From assembly GCA_002633005.1 (NCBI GenBank), contig NMRA01000020.1, positions 621,522 through 685,521 of the forward strand: DNA of 64,000 nt, written 5' to 3'. Source of the stretch: Phoronis australis. Lineage: Eukaryota; Animalia; Phoronida. Position 1 is the first letter of the stretch, and each line of letters begins with the position of its first letter. Below the pieces are notes generated by a model. That model did not search any database. It saw nothing but the letters and a program-made list of their open reading frames with translations, and was not told the DNA's origin. The position numbers were made by a program, and so were the translations under genes. Shown here one piece after another: positions 3,170-50,610 of this stretch.

Positions 3170-3869
3170 GTACTACTCCGCGGCCGACGGCTTAGTTGTT
3201 AGAGTTAATTGTTGTTGTGGCTTATATGTGTGTTGGTGTGTGTAATCACCTGTGTACGCAGACCTCGTTTGAATTTTGGTGGTGGTCTTTGGTGTCAAGT
3301 GTGAGTACCATAATTTTCTTTGTTAATTTCAACCCTAGTGTTGTGTCTCTCTCCTTGGTTAGCTCTGAGAATATTTACTTCAATTCTCAGCATACGGAAT
3401 GGCTGTTGTAGAAGTTCAAAGTTCTCAGACTAGGACATTTGTGACCAGAGCGATTAGTGTTTAATATCAGTTTCTCGACAATGTTTCTGTCTGTGCATAA
3501 CTTTCCAGGCCTTATCACCTAGTAGTTTGAAGTTTAAACTGCTGGCAAAGACCGACCCAAAATTGAGAAGGACGGATGAAAAATGTGAGATGGGTTGACG
3601 TTTTTACTTTGTGATGTCGTGTCGCGTTACTGAATATTATTGTTGTGTCGTAAGTCAAATGCTAAAATTGTATTCACTTTGCGATAGATGACTACTAAAT
3701 ATGTATGCCCGTATGAAAAACTAGAAAGGTGACTTTCTTGTAAAAATTAATTTAACTCCTGAAAATATGTGGTTTGGCGCTAATTCGACACGGTTGCTTA
3801 ATCTTGCTATTGATTCATTTCAAAAACGGGTATTCACTGTAACTGCTAATAATTCTAACAGTGGCCTAC

Positions 3870-3990
3870 TTTCACAGCTCCCTTCTTCCCATTTCACAGC
3901 TCCCTCCTTCCCATTTCACAGCTCCTTCCCATTTCACAGCTCCCTCCTTCCCATTTCTCACCCATCCTTCCCATTTTCTGGGTCTGTCCT
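3870..3990. repeat. Pyrimidine-rich tandem repeat (~21-25 bp unit TTCACAGCTCCCTCCTTCCCAT)
   Basis: About 5 imperfect copies visible. Confidence 0.85.
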
Positions 3991-5293
3991 TCCATTCAGC
4001 AGGTCCTTTCTTCTCATCGGCAAATGGAGCCTCACATTGGGTGATACATGAAGCCTGTTTTCATCACCACTCAACACTGATGTCTGTTGTTAAGTTAATG
4101 CTTTGTTGAACTGGATTATTATCATATATCCACTATATGATATAGGTATACATATTAAGTGACTCTATTTTCAATATTGATAGTTTTGGTATTACACGAC
4201 TGAGCTTCACTTTTCTGCTGGTATGTCGGTATTAAACATCCCTTTTGTCGAAGATGACATTTTTCTTTTTTTGTCAAAAAACAGACCCGAAGTGTTGGGG
4301 AATGTATCCTCATGGCTATTGTATCGCTTTTTATCTTCTGTGAGTGACTTGTTAATTAACTTACAAATGATTTGACTGGTGTCTGGTCAGGATCTAGCAT
4401 TTTTCTCACATTTTAATAAAACCTCAAGCTAGGTCGTGACAGAGTCTGTTTCTGTGTGATAAGGGTGCACCTGCCAGTCAAATTGTTAATGAAAATCTAA
4501 GGCCTTCTCTAGTTCAGCATTTAGAACCACTAGCATTGCTGCATTTGCTTCATAGTGCATTTTAAGCAAATTAAAGATAGGTCCCAAGCATGATTATTAA
4601 AAAAATTATGAGTTTTTAGATCATTAAAAACTATTGACAATTCATGAGCCTAATATAAATTTTAGGACCTAGACAGTAGAGTTAAGAAATTGCAAATTTT
4701 CAACACTAATCTGTTTTGGTGTGTGAAAACACTACTTCAGTAAAGTTCTGTCTTCCCTTTGACTGGTGGGGAAAATGAGGATGGATTTTGTCTGGTCCTT
4801 AGTACAAAAGTTAGACTTCATATTTTTGTCAAAGGTCTAGTATGCTGAAGAAGTTGGTATTTCAGGAAAACGTTTGTGAGCTTGGAGTATGTTATCTTGT
4901 TAGGACGTGAAACTGGTATTGCACACGTTGGTTTTGTTTTATGGGACAGTGTCACTCTTGTCGTACCATCAGCATTTCCTTTGTATTATTGTCACTAGAT
5001 TTTCTCATGCACCTATTAAAGAAATTATAAAGTAAATACTTATGTATAGGTATAGCAAATTTTAAGTCTGGTCAGCACACCGCTTGTGGCCACTGGTGGC
5101 GTGCAGACCAGACTTAAAAATGCAATATATATTTTCACAACCTTTAAGAATTACATATTTATACATACGTATATGTTTATATGTATATCTTGAAACAGAA
5201 AGGTTAAGTCAATCATTTATATAATTAAGTGAAGTCATAGTGCATTCCTACTGTAATTATTCCTTCTGAATTATTCCCGTTATCAATTCCTGT

Positions 5294-9833: not shown

Positions 9834-11266
9834 CCGTATTCGCCGTAGTAACCGCCCATGCCCCTATAAGCGCCCCCCACGCGTTTTCAGACTTTGCTGA
9901 AATAAGCGCCCAGTCCATGAACGTGTACATGCGAACAATGACGTACCTTCAGTCCTAAAACTCGGCTACAGTAACGTCTTCAATTTATCAACAAAAAAAA
10001 TTTTCTACGGGTCTTCTAGACCACCAATGGCACTGCTACATTTGTATTTAGCCGTGACTATACACTTCAAAGTAACACAGCGCTTCAAAAAGAACGCAAC
10101 AGCGTTGCTACTTTCGCGACGACTGTGTCCCACTATGGTCTGACCTTTCAGTAGACACATCGACTGTTTAAATAACTCGGTGTTGAATGCACGTGGCCAG
10201 AAAGCGCGCGCTACATATATGAACCTAGCTGTCATCAAAGACATTAGTCGGGAACTATCCATTCATGAAACGGGTAGCATAGCATCCGTAAGAAATGAAT
10301 ATTGGCCCTAATTTCCGACAATTTCTAATACTATAAAACATGTTTGCGTTATTTTTTAAAGGGATTGTTTGATTAACCATAATTGATGTTTTTAAACCGA
10401 ATATCCGATAAAATGACAACTGACAGTGAATGCTTGCACACCCTTACACCGAAAAATAACTGTCAGATAGTTACGTACGCATCCAGCTACACGGCGACTA
10501 ATATGGGCGGCATAATATGGGCCTTACCGAAACAAATGTCGAACGTTTTTAGCACGAGACTGGCAAGTGCTGAATGAAACACGCTCTGGTTTAGGCTTAC
10601 TGCTTGTGCAAATTTCTTTAGACGCAATGCACATCTAGCTCGTTAGATCGCGTGGCTCTGGCCAAAAGACGGTCTCTGCTTTGGCAAATGAACTCTGGTT
10701 ACACGCACGCGCTCGCTTACTCGCAGACGAACTTCAAAACAAACGTCACGTGACAACAACATGTGTGTTCGTCCAGACATTTTTCTCGCCATGTTGCCGA
10801 TCATACATGTAGATGGCACGATGTTGCGCAGATTTGTACTTAAAACTGCCGTAAATCCAGACTCCACGGGAACTTAAAAAAAGTCTTAGGGACGCTATTT
10901 AGAAAACTTAATGAGGATTTCAGGTAATTTGCTTGAGTCGAACCTATTTTTATTGAAGCATTGAAGTCGCCATATCGAAGACGGCAATTTTGAGGCAGTC
11001 ATTCGGCGAGTTTTCGCCCTGGGATTTCAGCACAATTTTCTGTAAAATGATCGTAATTTAGCAGCAAAGTTTGATAACAATGCACCACAGTTTTGTTGGA
11101 AGTCTTTCATAGATTACAGATACGTCACAGAACGTAAATTTGATGAATCTTAGCTTCCGATTTCACCCGTTTCGGAGACCGGGTTTCAACCGCCTTGGGT
11201 TATAATAAGCGCCCCCCTGAACAAAACTTTTCTAAACGCCCTGGGCAGTTATTACGGCGAATACGG
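9834..11266. mobile_element. Non-autonomous Tc1/mariner/pogo-type DNA transposon (1433 bp)
   Basis: 25-bp TIRs CCGTATTCGCCGTA(G/A)TAAC(C/T)GCCCA, 23/25 identical, with TA on both flanks. CpG-rich interior; no transposase ORF. Confidence 0.9.
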
Positions 11267-16952: not shown

Positions 16953-17133
16953 ATCTGGATGTGTGGTGGCCAGGTGCTTATTGTCACGTGCTCCCATGTA
17001 GGACACGTGTTCCGCAAGGCGACGCCGTACACTTTCCCCGGCGGCACAGGGCGCATCATCAACCACAACAATGCCAGGCTATCGGAAGTCTGGCTGGATC
17101 AGTGGAAACATTTCTATTACAAAATCAATCCAG
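16953..17133 (+). CDS. GALNT1: GalNAc-T alternative exon E8a (IWMCGG...[20 protein letters not shown]...FYYKINP)
   Basis: ccag acceptor, CAG|GTTAGA donor, 181 nt, phase 0->1; closest to the GALNT1/13 loop sequence [13 protein letters not shown]. Confidence 0.95.
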
Positions 17134-17572: not shown

Positions 17573-17753
17573 GTGTGGATGTGCGGGGGCTCTGTCTTGA
17601 TCGCCACGTGCTCCCGCGTCGGACACGTCTTCCGAAAGGTCAGCCCATACTCGTGGCCAGGTGGCGTTAGTCGCATCCTCAACCACAACACCCAACGCAC
17701 GGCCGAGGTCTGGATGGACAAATACAAGAACTTCTATTACAAAATCAGCCCAG
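17573..17753 (+). CDS. GALNT1: GalNAc-T alternative exon E8b (VWMCGG...[20 protein letters not shown]...FYYKISP)
   Basis: acag acceptor, CAG|GTTCGA donor; same length (181 nt) and phase as E8a; 40/60 aa identical; no stops. Confidence 0.92.
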
Positions 17754-21546: not shown

Positions 21547-21645
21547 ATAAAGAACAAACAAACTGGAAAGTGCCTTGACAGTATGGGTCGAAAGAGTGGG
21601 GAGAAACTGGGAATGGTCAACTGCCACGGAATGGGGGGGAACCAG
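21547..21645 (+). CDS. GALNT1: GalNAc-T exon E10, ricin-B lectin alpha repeat ([25 protein letters not shown])
   Basis: ttttcag acceptor, CAG|GTATTG donor; CLD...CHGxGGNQ motif; 99 nt, phase 0-0. Confidence 0.96.
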
Positions 21646-22307: not shown

Positions 22308-22442
22308 ATTTTCTCGTACTCAAAGAAGAAGGCATTTCAGACAGATGACGTCTGCATTGATGTGTCGGCCGTCAACGGTCCCGTCAATCTGTTTCAGTGT
22401 CACGGGCTGGGGGGAAACCAGCATTGGGAATACAACCGGCAG
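22308..22442 (+). CDS. GALNT1: GalNAc-T alternative exon E11a, lectin beta repeat (IFSYSKKKAFQTDDVCIDVSAVNGPVNLFQCHGLGGNQHWEYNRQ)
   Basis: ctgccag acceptor, CAG|GTTTGT donor; 135 nt, phase 0-0; CxD..CH...NQxW motif. Confidence 0.94.
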
Positions 22443-23017
22443 GTTTGTCATGACGCATCACCTTGCATGGTTGATGTCGACGTGTGAAGGATGTAGGGAA
22501 TCATGGACAGTCTTGATGGCAGGAGGGCTGTTTCACACATTATCTGACTGTCCTTGTGTGATTTTGAAAATTGTCTTGGAGTTTTGCTTTCCCAGCATGA
22601 CTTCTGAGATCTTAAAAATGGTCTGTTGTATGAACCATTGAATTTTGTTTAAAGTTGCCAAATCCTTACTTTTTTAACCAATTTTGATTTTACGAATTGT
22701 CACAATTTTTGTTCTGTAAACATGCCTGTTACCAACAGCTAATAAATATCCATTGTATTAGTGCCACATGGACTATATTTCTCAGAATGCAAGGAACACA
22801 AACAGATACAGTATGAAACTGGGCCCCTGAACTGTTTATCATTGCACACAATATGCAAATATTCTCCCAGGTGTTTGTGTTTGTGTGTAACGGTTTTGAG
22901 ACTCCACCCTTCCCTCATCTCTCCTGTCCATGATTCGTCGCCATCGTTCACGCCCGGCCCCGTCATCTGTATCACTAACACGGCTCGTCGTTTCACCTTC
23001 GTATTTTTGCTCTTCAG

Positions 23018-23143
23018 ATTTTTTCTTATGTGGCCACCAAACAAATACAGGCCGACGACCTGTGCATAGGTGCACAGTACTACACCGCCATACTAATGTC
23101 TTGTCACACGGTGTCCGGCGGACAATGGCTTTATGATCGACAG
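23018..23143 (+). CDS. GALNT1: GalNAc-T alternative exon E11b, divergent lectin beta repeat (IFSYVATKQIQADDLCIGAQYYTAILMSCHTVSGGQWLYDRQ)
   Basis: Branch point CACTAAC at 22973-22979, tcttcag acceptor, CAG|GTAGTG donor; 126 nt, phase 0-0; shares IFSY, QxDDxCI, CH and WxYxRQ with E11a. Confidence 0.88.
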
Positions 23144-24514
23144 GTAGTGTTGACGCATCTCCTGGGAAGGGTTTGGGTATCTGGTCTGGAAAACGTTTTA
23201 ATGTCTGCCAGTTGCGCTGTTCACGCTTTTTCAATTTTTATGAATTTCGTGTTGAGTTTTGTTCGAAAGCTTTGAATTTTTTTCTCTGTTGAAGAACAAT
23301 GATACAGTTATTGGGAGCATGTTAATAAAGCATTTTGTTATTATTTAATAAACGATGGTCTACTGTGGCAGTCAAATAAGTAGATGTTTTAATTTTTTGA
23401 TACTTTAAAAAGGAATGACTTTATCCTAATGATATTTATTGCATAATTCTCCGTAGCACCGGAAAATTCAGGGATTTCATTTATGGCGCTGCTTCTGTAT
23501 TTCAAATGCATTGTGTGAGGGTTGTCAGTTTGTACTTACTAGGTGATATCACAGATTACTTGTTGATGTGTACACAATGTGAAGGAAAACTTGCGCACAC
23601 GAGAATTATAAGCAAACTCCACTACAACATGTCTTTGGGTGCAAGTGTAACAAAATAGCCATCATAGAAGAAATAAACAGTGAAAGTGAGCCTCTAAAGG
23701 CATCAATATTTGATTAGCAATTTTTGGCGGAAGATTTTCGAGTCATGCCCCATCCAGTCGTTTGGTGTCGGATCTCACCACCTGAAATGCAAATCATGAA
23801 ACAAGTTATACACCCACAAGTTATCTATGTTGTCACTAGATGTTTATGAACTGACAAGTGTCCCACAATGCATTTGGGTAACAACAGCACCGCCACAGGT
23901 GAGATTGCCTGAATTGAGTTGTTTGACCAGGTCTCAAATTGTTGTTTGCTTCTTATTTGTCAAATAGTCGGTGTGGAGTGCTTGGTGCCCTGCTTCTTTA
24001 GTTTCTTCTGAATCGTCAAAACATGATTCATGTTAGCCGAAATCCATTTTTTATCAAGTAATACGGTTGATGAAAGGTTTGTTCAGGTCATGTAGGACTG
24101 TGGCTGATCTAAATGAAACTTTTAGACACTTCCCTTATGCGCTACTCTCCTAAATGCTGTTAGGGATTGGTGTTGAAATTGTCCACCTTTGCATGAGGGC
24201 TTTCAAAAACAAGAATGTCTAATAAAATTTGATCATGCTATTAATACTTTCAAAGTATCATGTTTTTGCTAAAAACTTGGTCATGTGACCTAATGAATGA
24301 CAGATTTGTAAAAAGTCAAAAATCAAATTCTACAGGCTTACTATGTTGGAAAGATAAACTTAGAATCTATAGGTTTGTAGATATTTGGCTAAGTATACTA
24401 AATATAAAAATAATAATTGCAGGTGGTCTGGTATACGTTGTACCAGACACCTCAGGTTGGCCCATTGCACTGATCACCTGGAACCATTTTTATGCTTTGT
24501 TAATATATAATAGT

Positions 24515-28000: not shown

Positions 28001-28079
28001 ACTCTTACAATAATGCACACTAACTCCAAGCAGTGTCTCGACACACCCAAACCAAATGAACCTAATGTGCCATCTCTTG
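28001..28079 (+). CDS. GALNT1: GalNAc-T exon E12, lectin gamma repeat (TLTIMHTNSKQCLDTPKPNEPNVPSL)
   Basis: tttttgcag acceptor, G|GTGAGT donor; H.NS.QCLD motif; phase 0->1. Confidence 0.93.
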
Positions 28080-31965: not shown

Positions 31966-33271
31966 AGTAAAAATTGTGCATTTCACTGCTTTCTTTGCCT
32001 ATTTGTAGTAAAAACGACTTATTTTCTGTGGTATTTTTTTTTGAGCTCAAACCTTTTAAACTTTAAGTGTTAGTCATAACATACACAAACAAACTAATAA
32101 CCAAATTAATGTTCATGTCTAGCCTCTTTAAAAGTACTCACCGACGTTCCCTTTCTACTTAGTCCTCTGAGAGCACTAGACAGATAAAAATGTCCTCTCT
32201 CCGGAAGTGCTCGCCATTTGCTGCCGTCAGTGTTGTATTGTTAGCCGAAGCTGTTTGGACATTAAAAGTACTATCGCGCATCCGACCGTTAATTGTTTCT
32301 GAATGAGCCAGCATTTCGTATGGTGCAAGCAGTGCGTACATTTCCCATTCCGCAATTCTAGCGTCAGCCAATTCCTTTAAAATCTGAAGCGTTTTCTCGA
32401 GTCTGAGTGTTCTTGTTGGCGACGCACTCAGAATCCTGTCACGGTAATTAGTACTGTTAGATGGTTGCATGAGGATAACAACAGCTCAATTCGAATTTTG
32501 TTTTTTTTGGCCTTGTAAACGGGGCGAAATACAACTTTAAACACTGTGACTACTAGAATCGACCAAAAATAGTCGAAGGTGCATTTTTACTGGAAAATGT
32601 GTCTGTTTGCTCCCTAACATCAATTTCTTAGAGATTGTTCTAAAACCCCACGACCCATTCTACATAAGCTCGACTCCATCTGAACATAGAACAAGCGCTG
32701 ACTTGCAGGACCAACGAGTTGGGCCGTGAGCTCGACCGGCTGGCATTTCCCTTTTTTGCTATTAAGAGAGTCGAATTGGAAAATTTGAAAGCCAAAAACA
32801 AAACAAAAAAAAACGCGACAAAATCAAATAATGACCTACAAACGTTACAAGTATGTTCCCGGCATTACATGTATGTAATCGTCTCCTCTGCTCTTCAGTG
32901 GATGTCAACTTAAAGCTTTTTTGGCGGGAGAGTGCGAGGAGCCGACGAATATGTAATTTTTCAGTAAACACAGTTTGAAAAAACAAAAGGTTAACTAAAA
33001 AGTACGTCAACGTTATATGGAATATATTGTAAACGAATATACAACAGAAAGCAAATAATAAAAATGCAAAATTATGTCCATTCACGTTAACTTTCACCCT
33101 AAGTTTAGTAGAGCAGGGCCATTGGTAGCCGCTTACCGTGGAACTATTTCCATGACGACGCTAGCACGCTCACAATTCGCTACTTCAGATCATGTTCTGA
33201 CGCAACTTTATGTTTCAAATCACCAGACTATAGCAAGAGCAGATTCGCGTGTAGGTAAGTCTTATGGGTAA

Positions 33272-34737
33272 GTCATCAGGTGGACGAGCACACCGACTGG
33301 TGTTCCAGTCTCGTATACAGCACGAAAAAAGTCGGGTCACTTAGCGTCTGCATCGCCCCCCAGAAGCTTAACAAGAGTCTGAAGCGCTGTCCACAAAAGA
33401 CACCGACCCTGGAAGAGTTGAATACAGAGTTTGCGGAAGCGAAGTTCTTCAGCAAACTCGACGCGAAGATTGGATACTGGTCTGTTCACCTCTATAAACA
33501 ATCCCAAGTCTTGACCACCTGCCATACCCCATTTGGCAGAGTATGTTGGACCCGACTTCCATTTGGCCTCAACGTGTATAAAGACATCTTGCAGACAGGA
33601 CTGGACCAAATTATCGAAGGGCTCAGTGGTGTTGTCAACATGTGGCAGTATTTGGTGCCAACGAAGAAAAGCATGATCGCAACCTACGTTGTCTCATGGA
33701 AGGATCTGCTCAAACTGGCCCAATATCAAGCTGCTTAGCATTTCCTTCTTCGGCAACTTGTACACAGACTCCGGAAACAAACCTGATCCTACCAAGATCA
33801 GAGACATCCTGAAGATGCCTGCACCTCAGAACAAGGAAGCCCTGCAACGTTACGTGGGCATGCTAAACCACCTTTCTCAGTACATTCCCCAATTTGCAGA
33901 CAAGGCTCTTACACTGCGCAACTTTCTGAAATTGGAAACACTCTGGGTGTGGGACGAATCATATCAGTATTGTTACGACGAACTCAAGAATCCAGTCTCA
34001 ACTTATTGCCAGCTGAGTTGTCTTACTACGACCCACGAAAGGCAATTACACTCGAGGTTGACGCGTCTCAGGAAGCGTTAGGTGTGGCACTTATTCAATA
34101 TGGCAAAGCCAGTCGCATCCGGATCTAAGACACTAGGATACTCAAAATATCGAACGAGAAATTTTAGCCATTCTATATGCCGTACAGAGGTATCACACCA
34201 ACCTGTATGGAACATATCATTCCTCGTCATAACTGACCATAAGCCGGTGGCCAGTATATATTTCAAGCCGCTCCACTCAACACCACCACTCACTACAGAA
34301 GATGTTACTGCAGATAAAAGGATATAACTTTCAACTAATCAACAGAACATGTAGCCAGATAACGTAAGCCGATACCAGGAGTAGACTACCAAACCCTGAA
34401 AACGGTGAAGCAATCGAGCAAGACAAGGTACGTATTGATGGTGTCAACGTCAACTTTGACAATCCCCTTGACATCGAAATTAATAGCCATCATAAAAACT
34501 TCTCTGACCGGAAAAGAGAGCCACTTAAAGCGGATACCACCCAAGACTCCATGCTCAAACTGTCTATCAAGGATGGGCTGACAGTGTGAGGGACGTAGTT
34601 AACTTGAAGCAGGCACGTCCATTCTGGGCCTTCAGAGATGAGCTAGCTGTCGAAACCAGAATCCTGTTTATAGCAAGACAAGTCCTGATACCCGAACAGA
34701 TGAGAGACGGTATCCAACGACAACTCCACGATGGGAA
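33272..34737 (+). mobile_element. Ty3/Gypsy pol remnant (RT, RNase H, start of integrase), frameshifted
   Basis: FSKLDAKIGYW, TPFGR...RLPFGL, EVDAS and TDHKP motifs. The RT DD motif is lost by a small deletion near 33640; multiple stops. Confidence 0.9.
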
Positions 34738-37135
34738 CATAACGCTAAACCCTCGTGAGAGACTGCCCCGAGTTGGCTGCTGGAGCAACTCGGGGCGGTC
34801 TGGGATCAAGCGGAAAAACCACAGGGGTAGATCTGTGGTCGACGAATCTATTCGGTCGATTACATTTTATTGCCCGTGAAGCCGCTAAGGGCTGCCTGAA
34901 GAAATATGACTCGCGCGTTTGTATTTCGCCTTTTTCAATGACATGTAAAAGATTCATCAACAAATTCCTCGTAAAAGTCTGAAAACAAGCGTTTTTCTCC
35001 CACGAAAATCGATGAAGTTTTGGCCGAGATATTTCACTTTCGGGTAGCCCTGCACACTCAGAGAATCGTCACACAAGATTACTACGCGGCAATGCGGTTT
35101 CACTGTCAACAAAGGAAGACGTCAAAATCGACTTATAATTGTCATTTTAAACTATTTGCATGTTAAATTGTCAAAATGTAAGTAAACTCGTACTCTATAT
35201 TTAAACAAGAAAACAGCAATTTCATTTTGATGAACATGTCTATAAGGACCTAACTCGCGCATGGTGGTGAGTAGTGAGTCCGGCCAACACGTGAGGATGG
35301 CTGTGTTGTTGTGTTTGCTCTCAACTCAAAAGTAGCCGTTTCAAAATGCAAGATGGACAGAAAATGCAGGCAGTTGACGAAAACGGCCATTGGAAGGAAG
35401 CAATTGAGCGGGGAGTAAATGACAGCGCTGGTAATTCACGTCGGTTTTCCTGGATGGCCGTCTGAGTTTGACCAGCTCGTCGAGCCGTGATTCGTGAGAC
35501 GCTGAGCCGATCGACTACGTCGGGCTCGGTACCTGGACCTGGTGAAGAAAAACGTAAGTATTTTTTGTCATCCCTTATGCTCGCATGATGCTGTTGGCTG
35601 TATAGATAAAGTATACCGTGTTTGCGTGGGATTTTGTGTTCATGAAATTACAGACTATNNNNNNNNNNNNNNNNNNNNNNNNNNNNNNNNNNNNNNNNNN
35701 NNNNNNNNNNNNNNNNNNNNNNNNNNNNNNNNNNNNNNNNNNNNNNNNNNNNNNNNNNNNNNNNNNNNNNNNNNNNNNNNNNNNNNNNNNNNNNNNNNNN
35801 NNNNNNNNNNNNNNNNNNNNNNNNNNNNNNNNNNNNNNNNNNNNNNNNNNNNNNNNNNNNNNNNNNNNNNNNNNNNNNNNNNNNNNNNNNNNNNNNNNNN
35901 NNNNNNNNNNNNNNNNNNNNNNNNNNNNNNNNNNNNNNNNNNNNNNNNNNNNNNNNNNNNNNNNNNNNNNNNNNNNNNNNNNNNNNNNNNNNNNNNNNNN
36001 NNNNNNNNNNNNNNNNNNNNNNNNNNNNNNNNNNNNNNNNNNNNNNNNNNNNNNNNNNNNNNNNNNNNNNNNNNNNNNNNNNNNNNNNNNNNNNNNNNNN
36101 NNNNNNNNNNNNNNNNNNNNNNNNNNNNNNNNNNNNNNNNNNNNNNNNNNNNNNNNNNNNNNNNNNNNNNNNNNNNNNNNNNNNNNNNNNNNNNNNNNNN
36201 NNNNNNNNNNNNNNNNNNNNNNNNNNNNNNNNNNNNNNNNNNNNNNNNNNNNNNNNNNNNNNNNNNNNNNNNNNNNNNNNNNNNNNNNNNNNNNNNNNNN
36301 NNNNNNNNNNNNNNNNNNNNNNNNNNNNNNNNNNNNNNNNNNNNNNNNNNNNNNNNNNNNNNNNNNNNNNNNNNNNNNNNNNNNNNNNNNNNNNNNNNNN
36401 NNNNNNNNNNNNNNNNNNNNNNNNNNNNNNNNNNNNNNNNNNNNNNNNNNNNNNNNNNNNNNNNNNNNNNNNNNNNNNNNNNNNNNNNNNNNNNNNNNNN
36501 NNNNNNNNNNNNNNNNNNNNNNNNNNNNNNNNNNNNNNNNNNNNNNNNNNNNNNNNNNNNNNNNNNNNNNNNNNNNNNNNNNNNNNNNNNNNNNNNNNNN
36601 NNNNNNNNNNNNNNNNNNNNCTTGACAGTTGCATTTATGTACACGTTGAAGCCTGGAGAATACAGACTTGATCAGGGCTTGGGATTTCCGTCTTTTAAGA
36701 GGAATTCTTTTTTTGGTGTCGATTTTCTCTGATTGGATTTCCAGTTTCCTCTTTTTATGATTTTTTCGACTTCATTAAATGTTTAGTTCAGGTAAATTTT
36801 ACATCCAAAAATGTCTATCACCCAAGCCTATTTTTTGTGTATCATACATCAGCTGGAAATTTCTCCGCTGTTTTTGTTATTGCTCATTCCAATGAGCTAT
36901 ACCAGGGTATAGCTAGCTATACCAGGGTATAGCTCATTGCTCATTCCAAGCTCTGCTTATTTTTCGTGAAGTAACTAGAATGGATTTCATAACATACCAG
37001 TTTATTGTACTGGATTCTTCTTGGGTTTATTAACTGTAAACTAACACTAATAGGAGCATAGGATAATAGCCACCCGTCTTAAGTTCGCACAAAAGTAGAG
37101 TACAAAATTCCAAACATAATTTCAAGTTCCAATTC

Positions 37136-43470: not shown

Positions 43471-43662
43471 GAGAAAACCATTCACGTAATAAATCCTTCT
43501 CTTGCAATTTCCTTAACAAGGATGAACATTTGGAAAAGTTGGAACAAGTTGTCCCTCAATATATGCGTCACGTAAACTTTAAGTTTACTGAAAGGTCATC
43601 GACTTGGATATAATATGCATGTTTTTGGTTTTCTTATCAATTTTGCTATTCTCGTTACATAG

Positions 43663-46096
43663 GGAAAAGACTGGCAATAATCCAAAGGTCGTTAGTAGAA
43701 ACCAACTGAAATCAAGCCTGTCTTCAAATAAAGACCGCCTTAAAGCTCTGGTGCTGAAAAAGATACCTAAAGAAGAACTTTTAACAATTCTGAATAAGAA
43801 AAGGGAATTAGAAAAAGCCTTTCAAGGGAAGAGGCAGCTAAATGTATGCTCTGATAGCTCTAATAACACCACAGAAGAAATTTCAAAGCGATTTTACCAA
43901 AACTCTTATAACGCTGGTCGACAGCAAGAACACATTTGTGAACGAGAAAAACTCTATGTTGAGTTGAGTATGACTACCCTTAATGCTACAGTGGCAGACA
44001 GAGTGGTTCTTTATTTTCTGCAGGCTGTAAAAGAAATTCTCAAGCCTCATTACTGTTGGACCAATAGTGTCGTATCCAGAAAGAGTATGTGCACACCAGA
44101 AGTGTCTCCAGTCGCGACACACGTTGCGGCCACAAGACAAAGTGTGCTTCTGAAGGATGCCACGCAGGACAGAAGATTTAATAACAGGTCTGTAGTCAAC
44201 AATGAACTCTCAGTCATCTGTATTCCTTTAATTAACGTCGACAAGGAACTAGTTGGCGTTATTGAGTTAAGCAGAGGCCAAGAAAGACCACCGTTTACAG
44301 AAAAGCATTACCGTATTGCCGAGGGGTTCATTGTGTGGGCGTGCCTCGGAATCAACCAAGTGATGCAAAAGTTTGTCAACAAACAAAAAAAGAAATTGAA
44401 TACTTTCCTGCTGGATGTTACCAACGACATATTTTACGACGTTAGACAACTTCACAACGTGATGGCGAAGACAATGACTCATTCTAAAGCCCTCGTAGGC
44501 GCTGAACGCTGCGCCGTGGCGTTTTTGGACAAGCTTCACAGTGAACTTTGCGTGACATTGCGGGACGTGGGTGAACAAGATAGTTCAGGGCAGCCGGTGT
44601 ACTCGAACCTAGTCAAAAGTCTGAGGTTCCCTGTCAGCGAATCTTTCATCCAACGCATTGCCAGCTCGGGAAATATATTTGTCCATGACAAAATGGACCA
44701 AAAGTTCACCAGTTGCGTTAAGGTTCTAAGTGAGCTTTGCAACGTGGAAGTGAGGAACATGATTTATAATTTTGTTGTGTACAAAGGCGAGACCCTTGGA
44801 ATGCTAGCAGTTCTAAACAAGCCAGAAAACGAAACCTTTTGTGAAGAGGACGTTGAAATGTTGAAAGTGTTTGGTGGCTATTTCTCGATAGCGCTAAATT
44901 ACTCAAAAATTTACAGTGAGATGAAAGTGAAAGAAGACTGTGCTAACGTTGCTATAGAGCAACTTCAAAGCCAGGCTATGAAACAAGACAAGAGTCTGGG
45001 AGAGAACTTGATGAAGAATCCTATCACGAAAGACAACGTTCCACAAGATATCTACTCTCACTTGTTTTCTATCGAGGATAATATTAAGGGTATATTAGAT
45101 AGTCTGTTCATCTTCATGGTTCACGATTTATTTGGTAACATACTGGATGAAGTAAAACTCTGCAGCTTCACAGAGGCTGTGTACCGTAACTACAGAACAG
45201 TGCCTTATCACAACTGGCAGCATGCCTTCTATGTCTCTCATTGCATGTACATAGTTCTGAAAGACCCCATTATGGTCACAGGTCTTACCGAGCTGGAGCG
45301 ATTGGGCCTTCTCATTGCTTGCATTTGTCACGACTTGGATCATCGCGGATACAATAACACGTTCTTCGAGAAGTTGAACCTTCCGCTCGCTGCCTTGTAT
45401 TCGACATCCGTGATGGAGCAACACCATTTTCACACGACGGTGCTAATTTTACAACAGGATAGTAACACTATTTTCGACCACTTCTCAACAGAACAATATC
45501 AGGAGATGCTGGCATTTATACGACACGCTATTATTTCAACGGATTTGTCTGTTTACTTTGGGCTCAATAAGCCAAAGCTAGAAGGTTTGGTGAAAAGTCA
45601 AACATTCGATGTTTCTAACCCTGAACACAAAGATGTGATGATTGCAGTCACTATGACTGCTTGTGATTTGTGTGCAGCTGCCAAACCTTGGACGCATCAG
45701 GTTAAAAGTGTGAAAGCTCTCTACGATGAGTTTTACGTTCAAGGTGACATCGAGAAAGATCGTGGTTTCGAGCCAATAGCAATGATGAACCGCGAAAACA
45801 ACGAGAAACTTGCCGACCAGCAAAGTGGATTCATGAAGTTCGTAGCTGTTCCTTTATACTCGACTCTTGGAAAAGTGATTCCCGTGGTCAAAGAAATAGA
45901 AGCCACCGTCAATGCAAATTTGGAAAATTGGATTAGAATCGGTATGGGGGAGACGATCCCTCCATGGGAGCCATCAATGACTTCAACCATAGGTACAGAC
46001 ACTGCATGGGCTCACAAAGAATCACTCCGTTCGGTAAAGTCACTGTTCCCATTTAACGAGGCAGAAAACATCAATCAAAAACCAAAGAATCACTAA
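43663..46096 (+). CDS. PDE10A: PDE10-like GAF-GAF cyclic nucleotide phosphodiesterase, single 2.4 kb coding exon; start at ATG 43619 or in an unidentified upstream exon
   Basis: Frame open from 43604 to 46096. YHNWQHAF, CHDLDHRGYNN...PLAALYSTSVMEQHHF, MTACDLC, EF..QGD and QSGF (invariant Gln plus Phe clamp) match the PDE10 pattern. GAF-B has NK...F..D.E. A pyrimidine tract and catag acceptor end at 43662. AATAAA at 46274-46279. Confidence 0.9.
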
Positions 46097-46909: not shown

Positions 46910-48822
46910 TAAATACGCAAATACCCAATTCAGTTAACTGAAGAACTTAAGGCCAAGCTTAATGAAATGCAGAACCTGGGTGTGATAGCAAAAGTGGATG
47001 ATTCTATGGCTAGTGAATGGGTTAACTCTCTAGCATTTGCTAGAAAACCCAATTAATAGCGAATTGAGAGTATTTATTGACCCTAAGGATCTCAACTTGG
47101 CTATAAAACGTACCTATCGCAAAACCCTACACTTGAAGAAATTAGCCACAACTTGCACGGGTCCACAGTTTTCTCAAAGGTAGATGCAAAGCATGGCTAC
47201 TGGAGTATCGAACTTGACGAACCCAGTAGTAACCTATGTACTTTCCAGAGTCCTTTCGGAAAGTACAAATTCTGTAGACTACCCTCTGGACTATGTGTAT
47301 CGCAAGATATCTTTCAGAAACACATGGATGACGTCATTAGGACAGCTGGTCATGGTGTCATAGGCATAGCAGACGACCTAGTAGTCTATGGCAATAACTT
47401 AGAGGATCATGACAAAGCCTTGCATAGAGTCATGGCAGCCGCCAGACAACATGGACTTGTACTCAGGGCTAAAAAGTGCAAAATTCGACTGGAATCAGTC
47501 ACCTTCTTTGGCCTTATCTGGTCACGGGACGGCATAAAGCCCGACCACAGCAAATGCGACGCACTAAAAAGCAAGGATGCACCCAAAAATGTCCAGGAAT
47601 TACAAAGCTTCCTTGGATTAGTACAGTACCTTGCACCGTTCATACCGCCTTTTGCTAACAAGACACACATACTAAAATAACTTTGCAAAAAACATTCTGA
47701 ATCGAAATGGTGTGCCGAACACCAATGAACTGCAAAATGCAGTAAACTGTTATATGTAGTTGCAGTATTTTGACCCTAAGACTCCCGTACAGACAGAAGT
47801 AGATGCTTCAATGAAGGGTTTAGGAACCGCTTTGATTCAGAACGGCAAACCCATTGCATTTGCATCCAAAGCCTTGACTCCTACTGAATCCAGATATGCA
47901 AACATTGAGGTGAGCTCTTGGTCGTTGTATACGGCCTCGAGAAGTTTCACACTTACATGTACGTGTACTGCAAGCTAGTCACAATCTATAGTGACCATAA
48001 GCGGCTTGTGAATATCAAGTTGAAACAGCTTGGTAGAGCACCCCCAAGATTGCATAGAATGTTATTGAGAATAGAGCCCTATGAAGTGAGCCTTTGTTAC
48101 AGGCCAGGTAACAAAATATGCTATGCTGACTATCTCTCACGAGTGTCCCCAACCACTGGATGATTAACTATAGAGATTGGTAAAGCTATACATGTTATTC
48201 AAATATCAGAGGGTCAGTTGGAAAACGTGAGAACTGCATCGAGAACTGATCATGAGCTTAGTAGTCTAGGTGAACAAATTAGAATAGGATAGCCAGACGA
48301 AGCAAAGTTAGTTCCGAAAACTATTCGTAGCTACTGGTCTAACAGATATTTCCTATCTGTAGAAGATGGATTAGTATTGTATGGCTCTCGACTAGTTATC
48401 CCTTCGAGTATAAGGAATGAATATCTTGATCGCATTCACACTAGTCATTTAGGTCAGACCAAATGTATACTCAGAGCTAAAGAATCGGTATATTGGCCCA
48501 ATATGACTTCAGATATCACTCAGTGAAGGATTGTACGATTTGCTTACAAAACGCCAAAAACAATCCCAAGGAGCCTATAATGGCCCACGAAATTCCTTGT
48601 ACTCCACAGTGACTACTTCCAGTTGGCAGCTGGTGACAAGTACATCCTGTTAGTGGATCAGTTCAGTAAAATCCCATTTGTAAGAGCTGTGAAAGATGAG
48701 TCAGCCAGAGAAGTCATTAAGTTTTGCAAAGACCTCTTTGCTGCTCACGGCATACCCAAAATAATGTACTCAGAAAATGGAGCACAATATGCTTCAGCAG
48801 AATTTAGGAATTTTGCTCTTAA
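46910..48822 (+). mobile_element. Ty3/Gypsy pol remnant (RT-RNase H-integrase); gag/protease deleted, 3' truncated
   Basis: FSKVDAKHGYW, IADDLVVYG, EVDASMKGLG, SDHK, IHTSHLGQTKC..RAKESVYWPNM and S(E)NGAQY motifs; several stops and frameshifts. Confidence 0.92.
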
Positions 48823-50610
48823 AGGCCTATGGTCCGAGTTATAGAAGAAAAAAACCTCTTAACGCCGTTTAAGCTGTTTTTTTGATGTGAAATGGAGTTC
48901 AAAAAGTTATTAACTTTCAAGTTGTGCAAAAATTTTGAAAAAAATCGTAAATACTACAAACGAATGAAATGTTTTGCAAAGAATTTGGTATCCGGGATGC
49001 TAAACAGATTATAAACATTGCAACAACGCATGCGCAGCCACAGATCTAGAGGTCAACAGAATTAATACAAAACAAATGGCGGAGACTAGTAGGTCTATGT
49101 AGTGTACGTCCGAAGGCGAAACTGGCAGTCGTCCTGCTCTACAAGATTCAGAAAAAGACGTGTTAGCCAGTACAAAAAGCGGCATTACCAACAAACCGTG
49201 TACCTGTAAGAGACTCGTTCGATAGGTGAGAAACAATGAGGACAAAACTGAATGTTCGAACTCGTGAAGGTTTTACATTACAACAAATGAACAATACCAG
49301 GCTTTCGATGGACAAGTGTAAGTCAATAAGTGTGCTGTTTGTGAAATGTTCAATGACTCGTACATGTATACACGGTTAGAGCATTCACTGATGGGTGACT
49401 GATCTCAGTCAGCATACATCGGACTCGAATCATTTTGAAGAGCCTAAATTCGATCAGCTGTTCAGTTTTTGTTCTAATACTACTAGTAGTAGTACTGATT
49501 CACGCTGACCCGGACTAGTTGCACCATGTTAGTGTTTTAACAGGTAGTTAAAACTGGTAAGGCCCTTTAATTCTAACGTCGACATGGCGATGTTTTGGGG
49601 GAGTTGCAGTCAGTATGGAGGGTTAACTTCGGTCCTGAATCGAAGTTAACTGTGCCACTTGACTTCACAGTAGACAAGCGGAGCGTCGATACTGTGGTGT
49701 ACGGTAGTATGAAGGATCAACATCGGTTATATCGAAGAAGTTATTGTTAGGGGCCACTGCTATCATCGACAATTACAGGGTAATCCCGTCGCTAAAAGCT
49801 GCTCATATTTTGCTCGAATAGTTACTAATCGAATTAGAAGTAGGTTTTGTGTCCATTAGCACATGTCAATGTTCCCAAATTATCACATTAAAAAATCCTG
49901 GTGTACAAGTGTTGCATCTGCACTACGTTGCTATTACTTCGATGACAACATCATCAGCTACAGTTTACTTAGACATCCAAAGCCGGTAAAAACGGTTCAA
50001 TTAACTTTCCAGTTCATGTCGACACCTGCTCAGACCGAAATCAAGTACAAAAGGGCTTTTAGATCGATTTCAACTAGCACTGTAGCAGGTGGTGTAAAGA
50101 ATTGTGGCGGGAGAGGGGGGGTGTTTGTAGGATGTGTTAGGGACTTCGCCTGGCCACGCCAATAGCTTTATTAGAAAGCTCATATCAGTGTTTGTCGTAC
50201 TGAGTACAGTGGGGGGGGGGGATAAGTCTTGGTCAAGATGGCTATACTTGAGAATGTCTTATTAGTTTTGCTTTATTTTTTCCAGTTAGGAGAATACTGA
50301 CCACCTACAGGGGCCCGTGTAACCGTAAGTTGATCTTTCTTATTCCATTAAGTTTTAAAAGAAAGAATAGGTGTGCTAAACTTCAGTTATTGATGGCCAC
50401 TTTTCTCTGTATTTCCATCTTAGACTGTGCAGGTTAGGAGAAAATGGTTAATTGCAATCTGCATGGTCCAGGTACATTACTTGAACTCACAACCTCAAAA
50501 AATTAGCCAGTCAAATCACGTGATTGGAGTACAAATCTTATGTTTTCTCATGTCATGGAATTGCTAAATTTTCGTGTTGTGTATCGAATACAGAGATTAG
50601 GCTATGGCCT
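48823..50610. mobile_element. Possible non-autonomous TTAA-target (Kolobok-like) insertion
   Basis: TTAA|AGGCC at 48819-48827, exactly where integrase homology stops, and GGCCT|TTAA at 50606-50614. TIR similarity beyond 5 bp is weak. Confidence 0.4.

Follow-up and report, generated by a model that had tools for sequence, protein, structure and literature searches.

Exons 11a and 11b of a polypeptide N-acetylgalactosaminyltransferase gene of Phoronis australis are mutually exclusive in vivo, and the two ends of the intron that separates them form an unusual long duplex, one arm of which (Y) also matches the end and donor of exon 11b. The exon pair and the duplex are real; the mechanism is proposed. 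We favor a model in which the 11a–11b intron would be a two-state RNA switch around hub Y, with competing folds of the kind described for ATE1, a reading that we hold to be possible, if somewhat short of probable. The two rival folds predicted for the intron likely hide one exon or the other rather than simply shortening the gap between donor and branch point.

Exons 11a and 11b are mutually exclusive

The window, by which we mean the whole 64-kb stretch of DNA that was analysed (64,000 nt), encodes the transferase between about 9.5 and 28.75 kb on its + strand. A full-length Owenia homologue aligns to the gene exon by exon, and one catalytic exon finds its top named matches, at 75–85% identity, among GALNT1/13-like proteins of annelids, brachiopods, and bryozoans. 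The lectin alpha repeat (Pfam Ricin_B_lectin positions 5–38) is encoded by the constitutive exon 10 (21547..21645, +), which reads join to 11a or 11b. Exon 11a (22308..22442, +) carries a conserved lectin beta repeat (Ricin_B_lectin positions 40–86), with database relatives that are up to 82% identical; exon 11b (23018..23143, +) carries a diverged one. Between them lies a GT-AG intron (22443..23017, +), whose length of 575 nt was confirmed from the sequence, and both exons are joined by reads to the constitutive exon 12 (28001..28079, +), the start of the lectin gamma repeat. The two exons encode the same beta repeat of the ricin-type lectin domain (the Pfam match is that of 11a) and are 44% identical. 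As the preliminary description had it, the pair is frame-symmetric, with lengths of 135 and 126 nt and phase 0-0 in both. Exon 11b as the sole query (42 residues) retrieved no database relative, which is weak evidence at such a query length, and no third exon-11 copy was found in the 64-kb window. The CID motif of 11a reads CIG in 11b, with Gly replacing the Asp that follows the first Cys; presumably, this change would likely abolish sugar binding by that ricin-type repeat.

Splicing was read from three raw RNA runs, chosen by species label, of which about 18–19% each was covered. The 136 junction reads fall on four either/or joints: E10-11a (40), E10-11b (16), 11a-E12 (36), and 11b-E12 (44). 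A fourth run has the same four joints in its contigs. In the three runs, 11a-11b and E10-E12 joints both stay below the threshold for listing, set at 3 reads with 2 starts in each run, and the common 11a-11b junctions that had been named as refuting the earlier proposal are thus not seen at that threshold. The exons form a homologous pair of compatible phase, each is spliced to both flanks, as expected of mutually exclusive tandem exons, and we conclude that they are used as such. Overall 11a and 11b are used about equally, with an 11a:11b read ratio that varies by run (28:11, 14:17, and 34:32). Since inclusion of both exons would keep the frame, message decay (NMD) cannot account for the absent 11a-11b joint.

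A further twin pair, E8a/E8b (16953-17133 and 17573-17753), encodes part of the catalytic domain; its copies are 181 nt each and 67% identical, a message that included both would be thrown out of frame, and their intervening intron lacks an end duplex. Both E8 copies are present in two of the fetched loci (L001 and L010) and stand in tandem in a Lingula gene model (P0001).

About 30 of the first intron bases are alike after the 11a and 11b donors, with 16 of 20 identical in the core (22451-22470 vs 23151-23170), a likeness that 0 of 1000 shuffles match. It may reflect a shared element, or a recent duplication followed by fast exon change. The TGACGCATC motif common to both donor flanks was considered as a pairing element and set aside, as it has no outstanding partner in the scan.

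An unusual duplex joins the ends of the 11a–11b intron

The preliminary description reported that the intron can zip into a long duplex. Its central helices are borne out: 22498-22510 is the exact complement of 22924-22936, a 13-bp pairing (runs of at least 13 occur in 2 of 2000 shuffles), and 22482-22493 pairs with 22942-22953 with one G-U pair and one G.G mismatch. The duplex exceeds that description, with added helices 22515-19/22915-19 and 22522-27/22907-12. The 5′ arm, X (22482..22527, +), forms with 22907-22953 35 predicted pairs in five main helices (mean probability 0.71–1.0); the 3′ arm, Y, spans 22906..22963 (+).

The comparison with shuffled sequence that had been suggested as a check gives a whole-intron MFE z of −3.23, with 0 of 100 shuffles as low. 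For the first 100 nt of the intron against its last 130 nt, the pairing energy is −72.8 kcal/mol (z −4.55, 0/1000 shuffles). None of 1129 equally spaced window tiles is as strong, and none of the other 17 introns among the 18 compared goes beyond z −1.83; four control introns had ends that were 1–2 nt off, which is immaterial for windows of 100 and 130 nt. The frame-shifting E8a/E8b intron, with an end-to-end z of −0.94, forms no duplex. X pairs with Y at −53.7 kcal/mol and with its next partner among 725 windows at −36.0 kcal/mol. The intron-end duplex is therefore real and unusual.

The second-strongest end-to-end duplex of the window (−70.5 kcal/mol) is that of tile 3501-4075, which has purine-rich and pyrimidine-rich arms. 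A downstream docking site for X at 25419-34 was rejected, as it lies outside the six best partners of X. Rfam yielded no family match inside the 11a–11b intron and one chance match outside it. A perfect 8-bp local hairpin at 22505-22553 occludes some of the X core early in transcription; folding of the growing transcript gives it a probability of about 1 until ~22900 has been transcribed, and it could, by this prediction, delay the long duplex.

Arm Y has a second predicted partner at the 11b donor

Y is a hub for which X competes with another predicted partner, the end of exon 11b plus its donor. When Y was scanned against 724 windows from E9 to E12, segment Z (23108..23172, +), which comprises the exon 11b end, the donor, and 29 nt of intron, was second best after X, at −40.1 vs a mean of −14.6 kcal/mol. 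Shuffles of either strand did as well in 5 and 2 of 2000 cases; against a best-of-region null the match is borderline, with 4 of 60 shuffled arms doing equally well. A fixed test of intron positions −130..−40 against the exon end and donor gave Y–Z a z of −3.73 (0/200), the best of 27 exon tests (next, −2.26), which are not all independent because three of the loci (L007, L009, and L010) appear to be one sequence. The Y–Z match was found after the fact. No donor-masking pairing of this kind is present in the frame-shifting E8 pair.

The Y–Z helices are 22906-14/23164-72 (9 bp), 22923-28/23139-44 (6 bp over the donor), and 22940-44/23125-29. Their probability is 0.96–0.99 with X absent or blocked, and the 11b donor is then predicted to be covered at 0.99. 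Nineteen Y bases are common to the X and Z pairings, and the two partners are computed to be mutually incompatible. X and Z each match the complement of Y as only 1 and 3 of 1000 shuffles do; in local alignment to one another they do no better than 494 of 1000 shuffles, so that the partners are not selector-like. In the unconstrained fold Y–Z lies 12 kcal/mol above X–Y. The gap narrows to 5–7 kcal/mol when exon 11a and its donor are held open, and Y–Z becomes the minimum once the covered part reaches +48.

When the duplex forms, two segments of exon 11a (22341-50 and 22404-11, +) find predicted partners at 22961-70 and 22953-60, with a probability of 0.38–0.95 that depends on the fold window. 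When the 65 nt that precede the branch point are shuffled, 8 of 1000 trials equal the 10-bp perfect match of these segments, and when the whole intron is shuffled, 84 of 1000 do; by duplex energy 173 of 1000 shuffles are as good, which makes this pairing statistically weak. The last 60 nt of exon 11a against the intron end were not significant in any of 17 tests. In simulated transcription the predicted probability of a hairpin at the 11a donor rises from about 0.1 to 0.9 only after 22953-22970 has been made. G-rich 11a codons that match an intron-end element were dismissed as too weak a signal (1/40 each in the window and L013, 10/40 in L001).

The switch model joins the observed exon use and complementarities to predicted folds and energies, from which we infer the effects on splicing. 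In the X–Y state, the predicted energy minimum, the duplex would extend into exon 11a, with 22953-22970 pairing there; the 11a donor would be shut in a small hairpin, which would leave 11b for splicing. X would be blocked by early occupation of exon 11a and its donor together with roughly the first 48 bases of the intron. Candidate blockers are U1 and perhaps an RBFOX protein at +22, where a UGCAUG (RBFOX-type motif; 22464..22469, +) lies in a local hairpin loop 13 nt before X and could serve as a handle for tissue control. With X blocked, Y would reach over exon 11b to pair with the 11b donor and would thereby silence that exon. Given that 11a and 11b see about equal use while Y–Z is worse by 12 kcal/mol in the unconstrained fold, the switch would need early commitment to 11a.

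Alternative explanations

The duplex might instead be a real but incidental inverted repeat, left by an old insertion or a local inversion, with splicing proteins enforcing exclusivity. We consider this account somewhat unlikely; comparison with relatives speaks for it. Both exon-11 copies were seen in 2 of 18 fetched genomic loci (L001 and L013), whose introns are unrelated; several other fetched loci show one copy and then E12, the second copy not being seen. In the two loci with both copies, both of them distant, neither the end duplex (z 0.03 and 0.09) nor the donor-masking pairing (z −0.43 and 0.52) was detected. These animals keep the twin exons with neither pairing, so the structure is either lineage-specific or incidental. 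Competing structures are reported to be usually not conserved over long distances (PMC5740500), a remark that softens the objection from non-conservation but does not remove it.

The sequence of the duplex is likewise compatible with an incidental origin. The antisense strand pairs its ends almost as well as the sense strand (−69.4 vs −72.8 kcal/mol); there is thus no strand-specific G-U signature, and the sequence alone is no proof of selection on RNA. The window has about eight sites with perfect inverted repeats of at least 13 bp at a spacing of 100–1000 nt, and one tile comes close to the intron in score. On the other hand, contig depth is flat over both arms in two runs (X1 and X3), which makes X and Y single-copy at 85% likeness, in contrast to the hairpin element 300 nt past exon 11b, which is multi-copy. 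Flat depth also led us to reject the arms as a miniature inverted-repeat transposon, of which older, decayed copies are possible. The arms moreover sit, one at each end, in the single intron for which a lock is needed, and the second partner of Y coincides with the donor of the twin exon. X and Y show no difference in one contig of a second sample.

In L001, a segment just before exon 11a (9973-9985) forms 13 pairs, G-U included, with the same place in both twin exons; judged from the sequence, this may be a different lock in that animal.

The preliminary description saw in the duplex a steric device: fully zipped, it would leave ~20 nt between the 11a donor and the branch point and so prevent 11a from joining 11b. 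The predicted branch point that it named, CACTAAC at 22973..22979 (+), is there; its A (22978) lies 39 nt before the last intron base, the motif is the only YTRAY match in the last 270 nt of the intron, and no AG occurs from 22901 to 23015. The linear distance from donor to branch point is 535 nt, well outside the linear limit of <~50 nt. Zipping to ~20 nt would require an outer helix between 22450-22455 and 22961-22966. These hexamers are indeed complementary, but their predicted pairing probability is only 0.00–0.04, whether at 37 or 20 °C, whether exons are included or not, and also when the splice signals are held open. Forcing the helix costs 2.5 kcal/mol for the intron alone or 5.3 with exons. 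The stable duplex begins 39 nt past the donor and stops 24–25 nt before the branch A, and the commonest linker outside it, rather than ~20 nt, is 64 nt for the intron alone (194 of 300 samples) and 64–68 nt with exons. An effective distance of 18 nt is reached only in a state 2.5–5.3 kcal/mol above the minimum, which renders the steric state unlikely.

A structure-made steric block, in which the duplex would zip as far as +8 on one side and 11 nt short of the branch A on the other, U1 on the 11a donor and U2 on the 11b branch point could not coexist, and proteins would choose the exon, is in our estimation unlikely. Every complementarity that it calls for exists, the cost of zipping is within model error, and a local hairpin at +8..+35, if closed with the splice signals open, would also shorten the path from donor to branch point to about 36 unpaired nt. 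The threshold of ~50 nt is documented for linear distance (PMC5740500, PMC7969005). The predicted geometry is instead that of a zipper stem, defined in yeast as at least 6 bp with a linker of 42–85 nt in total, at least 10 nt from the donor and 20 nt or more away from the branch point, and modeled there as compatible with the A complex (PMC12350175). With 39 and 24–25 nt, X–Y fits that definition, and is therefore not expected on its own to block 11a-11b joining; zipper-like stems usually aid splicing (PMC12350175, PMC7404189). The claim that the duplex acts by cutting the donor–branch distance below ~50 nt is thus not supported. A steric block also leaves the match of Y to the 11b donor unexplained, and its branch point is placed by motif.

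A composite of the two ideas would have folding alone make the 575-nt intron too short, the hub alternatively mask the 11b donor, and A-to-I editing at A-C mismatches of the inner stem tighten the fold and tune the lectin repeat. Taken jointly, with a duplex that closes up to 18 nt from donor and branch point, and with steric interference that needs no distant branch point, it strikes us as unlikely. No report of a fold-made steric block was found in a literature search whose scope left out most subscription journals. A paper on Dscam exon 17 is reportedly titled on steric hindrance plus RNA structure and may anticipate part of the present proposal.

Finally, a bridge like that of FGFR2, in which the duplex would do no more than place the +22 UGCAUG near the 11b branch point, a single bound RBFOX protein then promoting 11a and repressing 11b in some cell types, is improbable: the hexamer next to X, the FGFR2 IAS2-ISAR stem, which acts with gcaug elements and Fox proteins to activate IIIb and repress IIIc (PMC2471395), nematode exon pairs under RBFOX control through UGCAUG (PMC3585155), and the unequal 11a:11b ratio between runs all speak for it, but the hexamer is alone against a window background of 0.53 per kb, was not found at the corresponding place in L001, L013, or L002, and would cover repression of 11b and neither the silencing of 11a nor the Y–Z match.

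Comparison with known systems

Among the systems compared, the two-state switch proposed here would work most like exons 7a/7b of human ATE1. There, too, an intronic hub between twin exons has two rival partners (R1-R3 vs R3-R4), one pairing lies inside the intervening intron, and a splice site is overlapped (PMC7797038). The two ATE1 partners resemble one another, each lying immediately upstream of an exon, whereas X and Z are unlike each other and one of them masks a donor. The ATE1 pairings are, in addition, conserved across vertebrates and backed by mutational proof (PMC7797038), whereas the case made here is computational. FGFR2 IIIb/IIIc shares with the present locus a stem between mutually exclusive exons and gcaug elements nearby; its stem bridges protein-binding elements, and no rival pairing with a downstream donor is described in the excerpted text of that report (PMC2471395). 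Yeast zipper stems such as that of RPS17B promote removal of their own intron (PMC12350175), whereas the 11a–11b intron is not seen removed. Steric exon pairs (OGDH 4a/4b, PMC7969005; 57 human clusters, PMC5740500) are likewise mutually exclusive twins, but their branch point lies <50 nt from the donor in linear distance, compared with 535 nt here.

At the protein level, the gene parallels exon 8A/8B of Drosophila pgant9, in which alternative exons also swap a lectin subdomain of a GalNAc-transferase and thereby alter substrate choice (PMC6115407). In pgant9 the alpha repeat is exchanged (PMC6115407); in the present gene it is the beta repeat, and another twin pair encodes part of the catalytic domain. 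For lectin-domain twin exons in GALNT1/13 no report was found, most subscription journals being outside the scope of the search.

Lectin-beta twin exons turn up again in gene models from annelids and bivalves as well as from one snail and one octopod, where the two are often erroneously strung together. A rule-based count over the 145 proteins that match the beta repeat finds two tandem copies in 4 (Lamellibrachia, Tegillarca, Argonauta, and Dreissena), and tandem copies were also recognized by eye in Biomphalaria. The second beta-repeat copies of P0004, P0061, P0062, P0064, and P0086 are diverged, as in exon 11b. This recurrence suggests that one GALNT1-like gene may yield several enzymes, as for pgant9.

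Steric, U12, or frame effects explain a minority of mutually exclusive exons in a human survey (PMC5740500), and most frame-symmetric pairs are without a known lock. The present locus, at <1 kb, would allow the steric, bridging, and competing-fold models to be separated with a handful of mutants, and would likewise show whether the spliceosome treats a folded intron as a short one.

Inner stem and neighboring elements

Nested in the duplex is an inner stem (22530..22819, +), in which 22530-22567 pairs with 22782-22819 at helix probabilities of 0.72–0.99; the duplex interior alone has a fold z of −1.55. In run X4, one contig that spans the intron shows two differences, A>G at 22801 and 22813. 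A22801 and A22813 face C22548 and C22536 as A-C mismatches of the inner stem, and the two changes rank 11 and 3 among 105 possible A>G changes for stabilizing the fold (chance about 0.01). ADAR prefers A-C mismatches. X4, which is listed as DNA yet has spliced contigs, carries 7 substitutions that are absent from X1 and X3, of which five are sense-strand A>G (22801, 22813, 23819, 23880, and 23881; binomial p 0.002–0.013). All five lie in or beside predicted duplexes, three of them (23819, 23880, and 23881) within the repeat hairpin downstream of exon 11b. Two reads of another run (X7) that cover 22801/22813 show A. The differences could possibly stem from A-to-I editing of pre-mRNA, or be alleles; A>G at A-C mismatches would be an indirect sign that the intron folds in cells, and one that concerns the inner stem, not X–Y.

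The repeat hairpin (23450-23920), 300 nt after exon 11b, is about 470 nt long, folds at −150.9 kcal/mol, and has multi-copy, MITE-like arms. Farther downstream in the window, an intronless ORF of 834 codons (43592-46093) encodes two GAF domains and a cyclic-nucleotide phosphodiesterase domain; it is flanked by retroelement remnants and is possibly a retrogene. Two broken ORFs (33259-34876 and 47087-48841) are LTR-retroelement pol-like pieces, recognized by eye from their translations.
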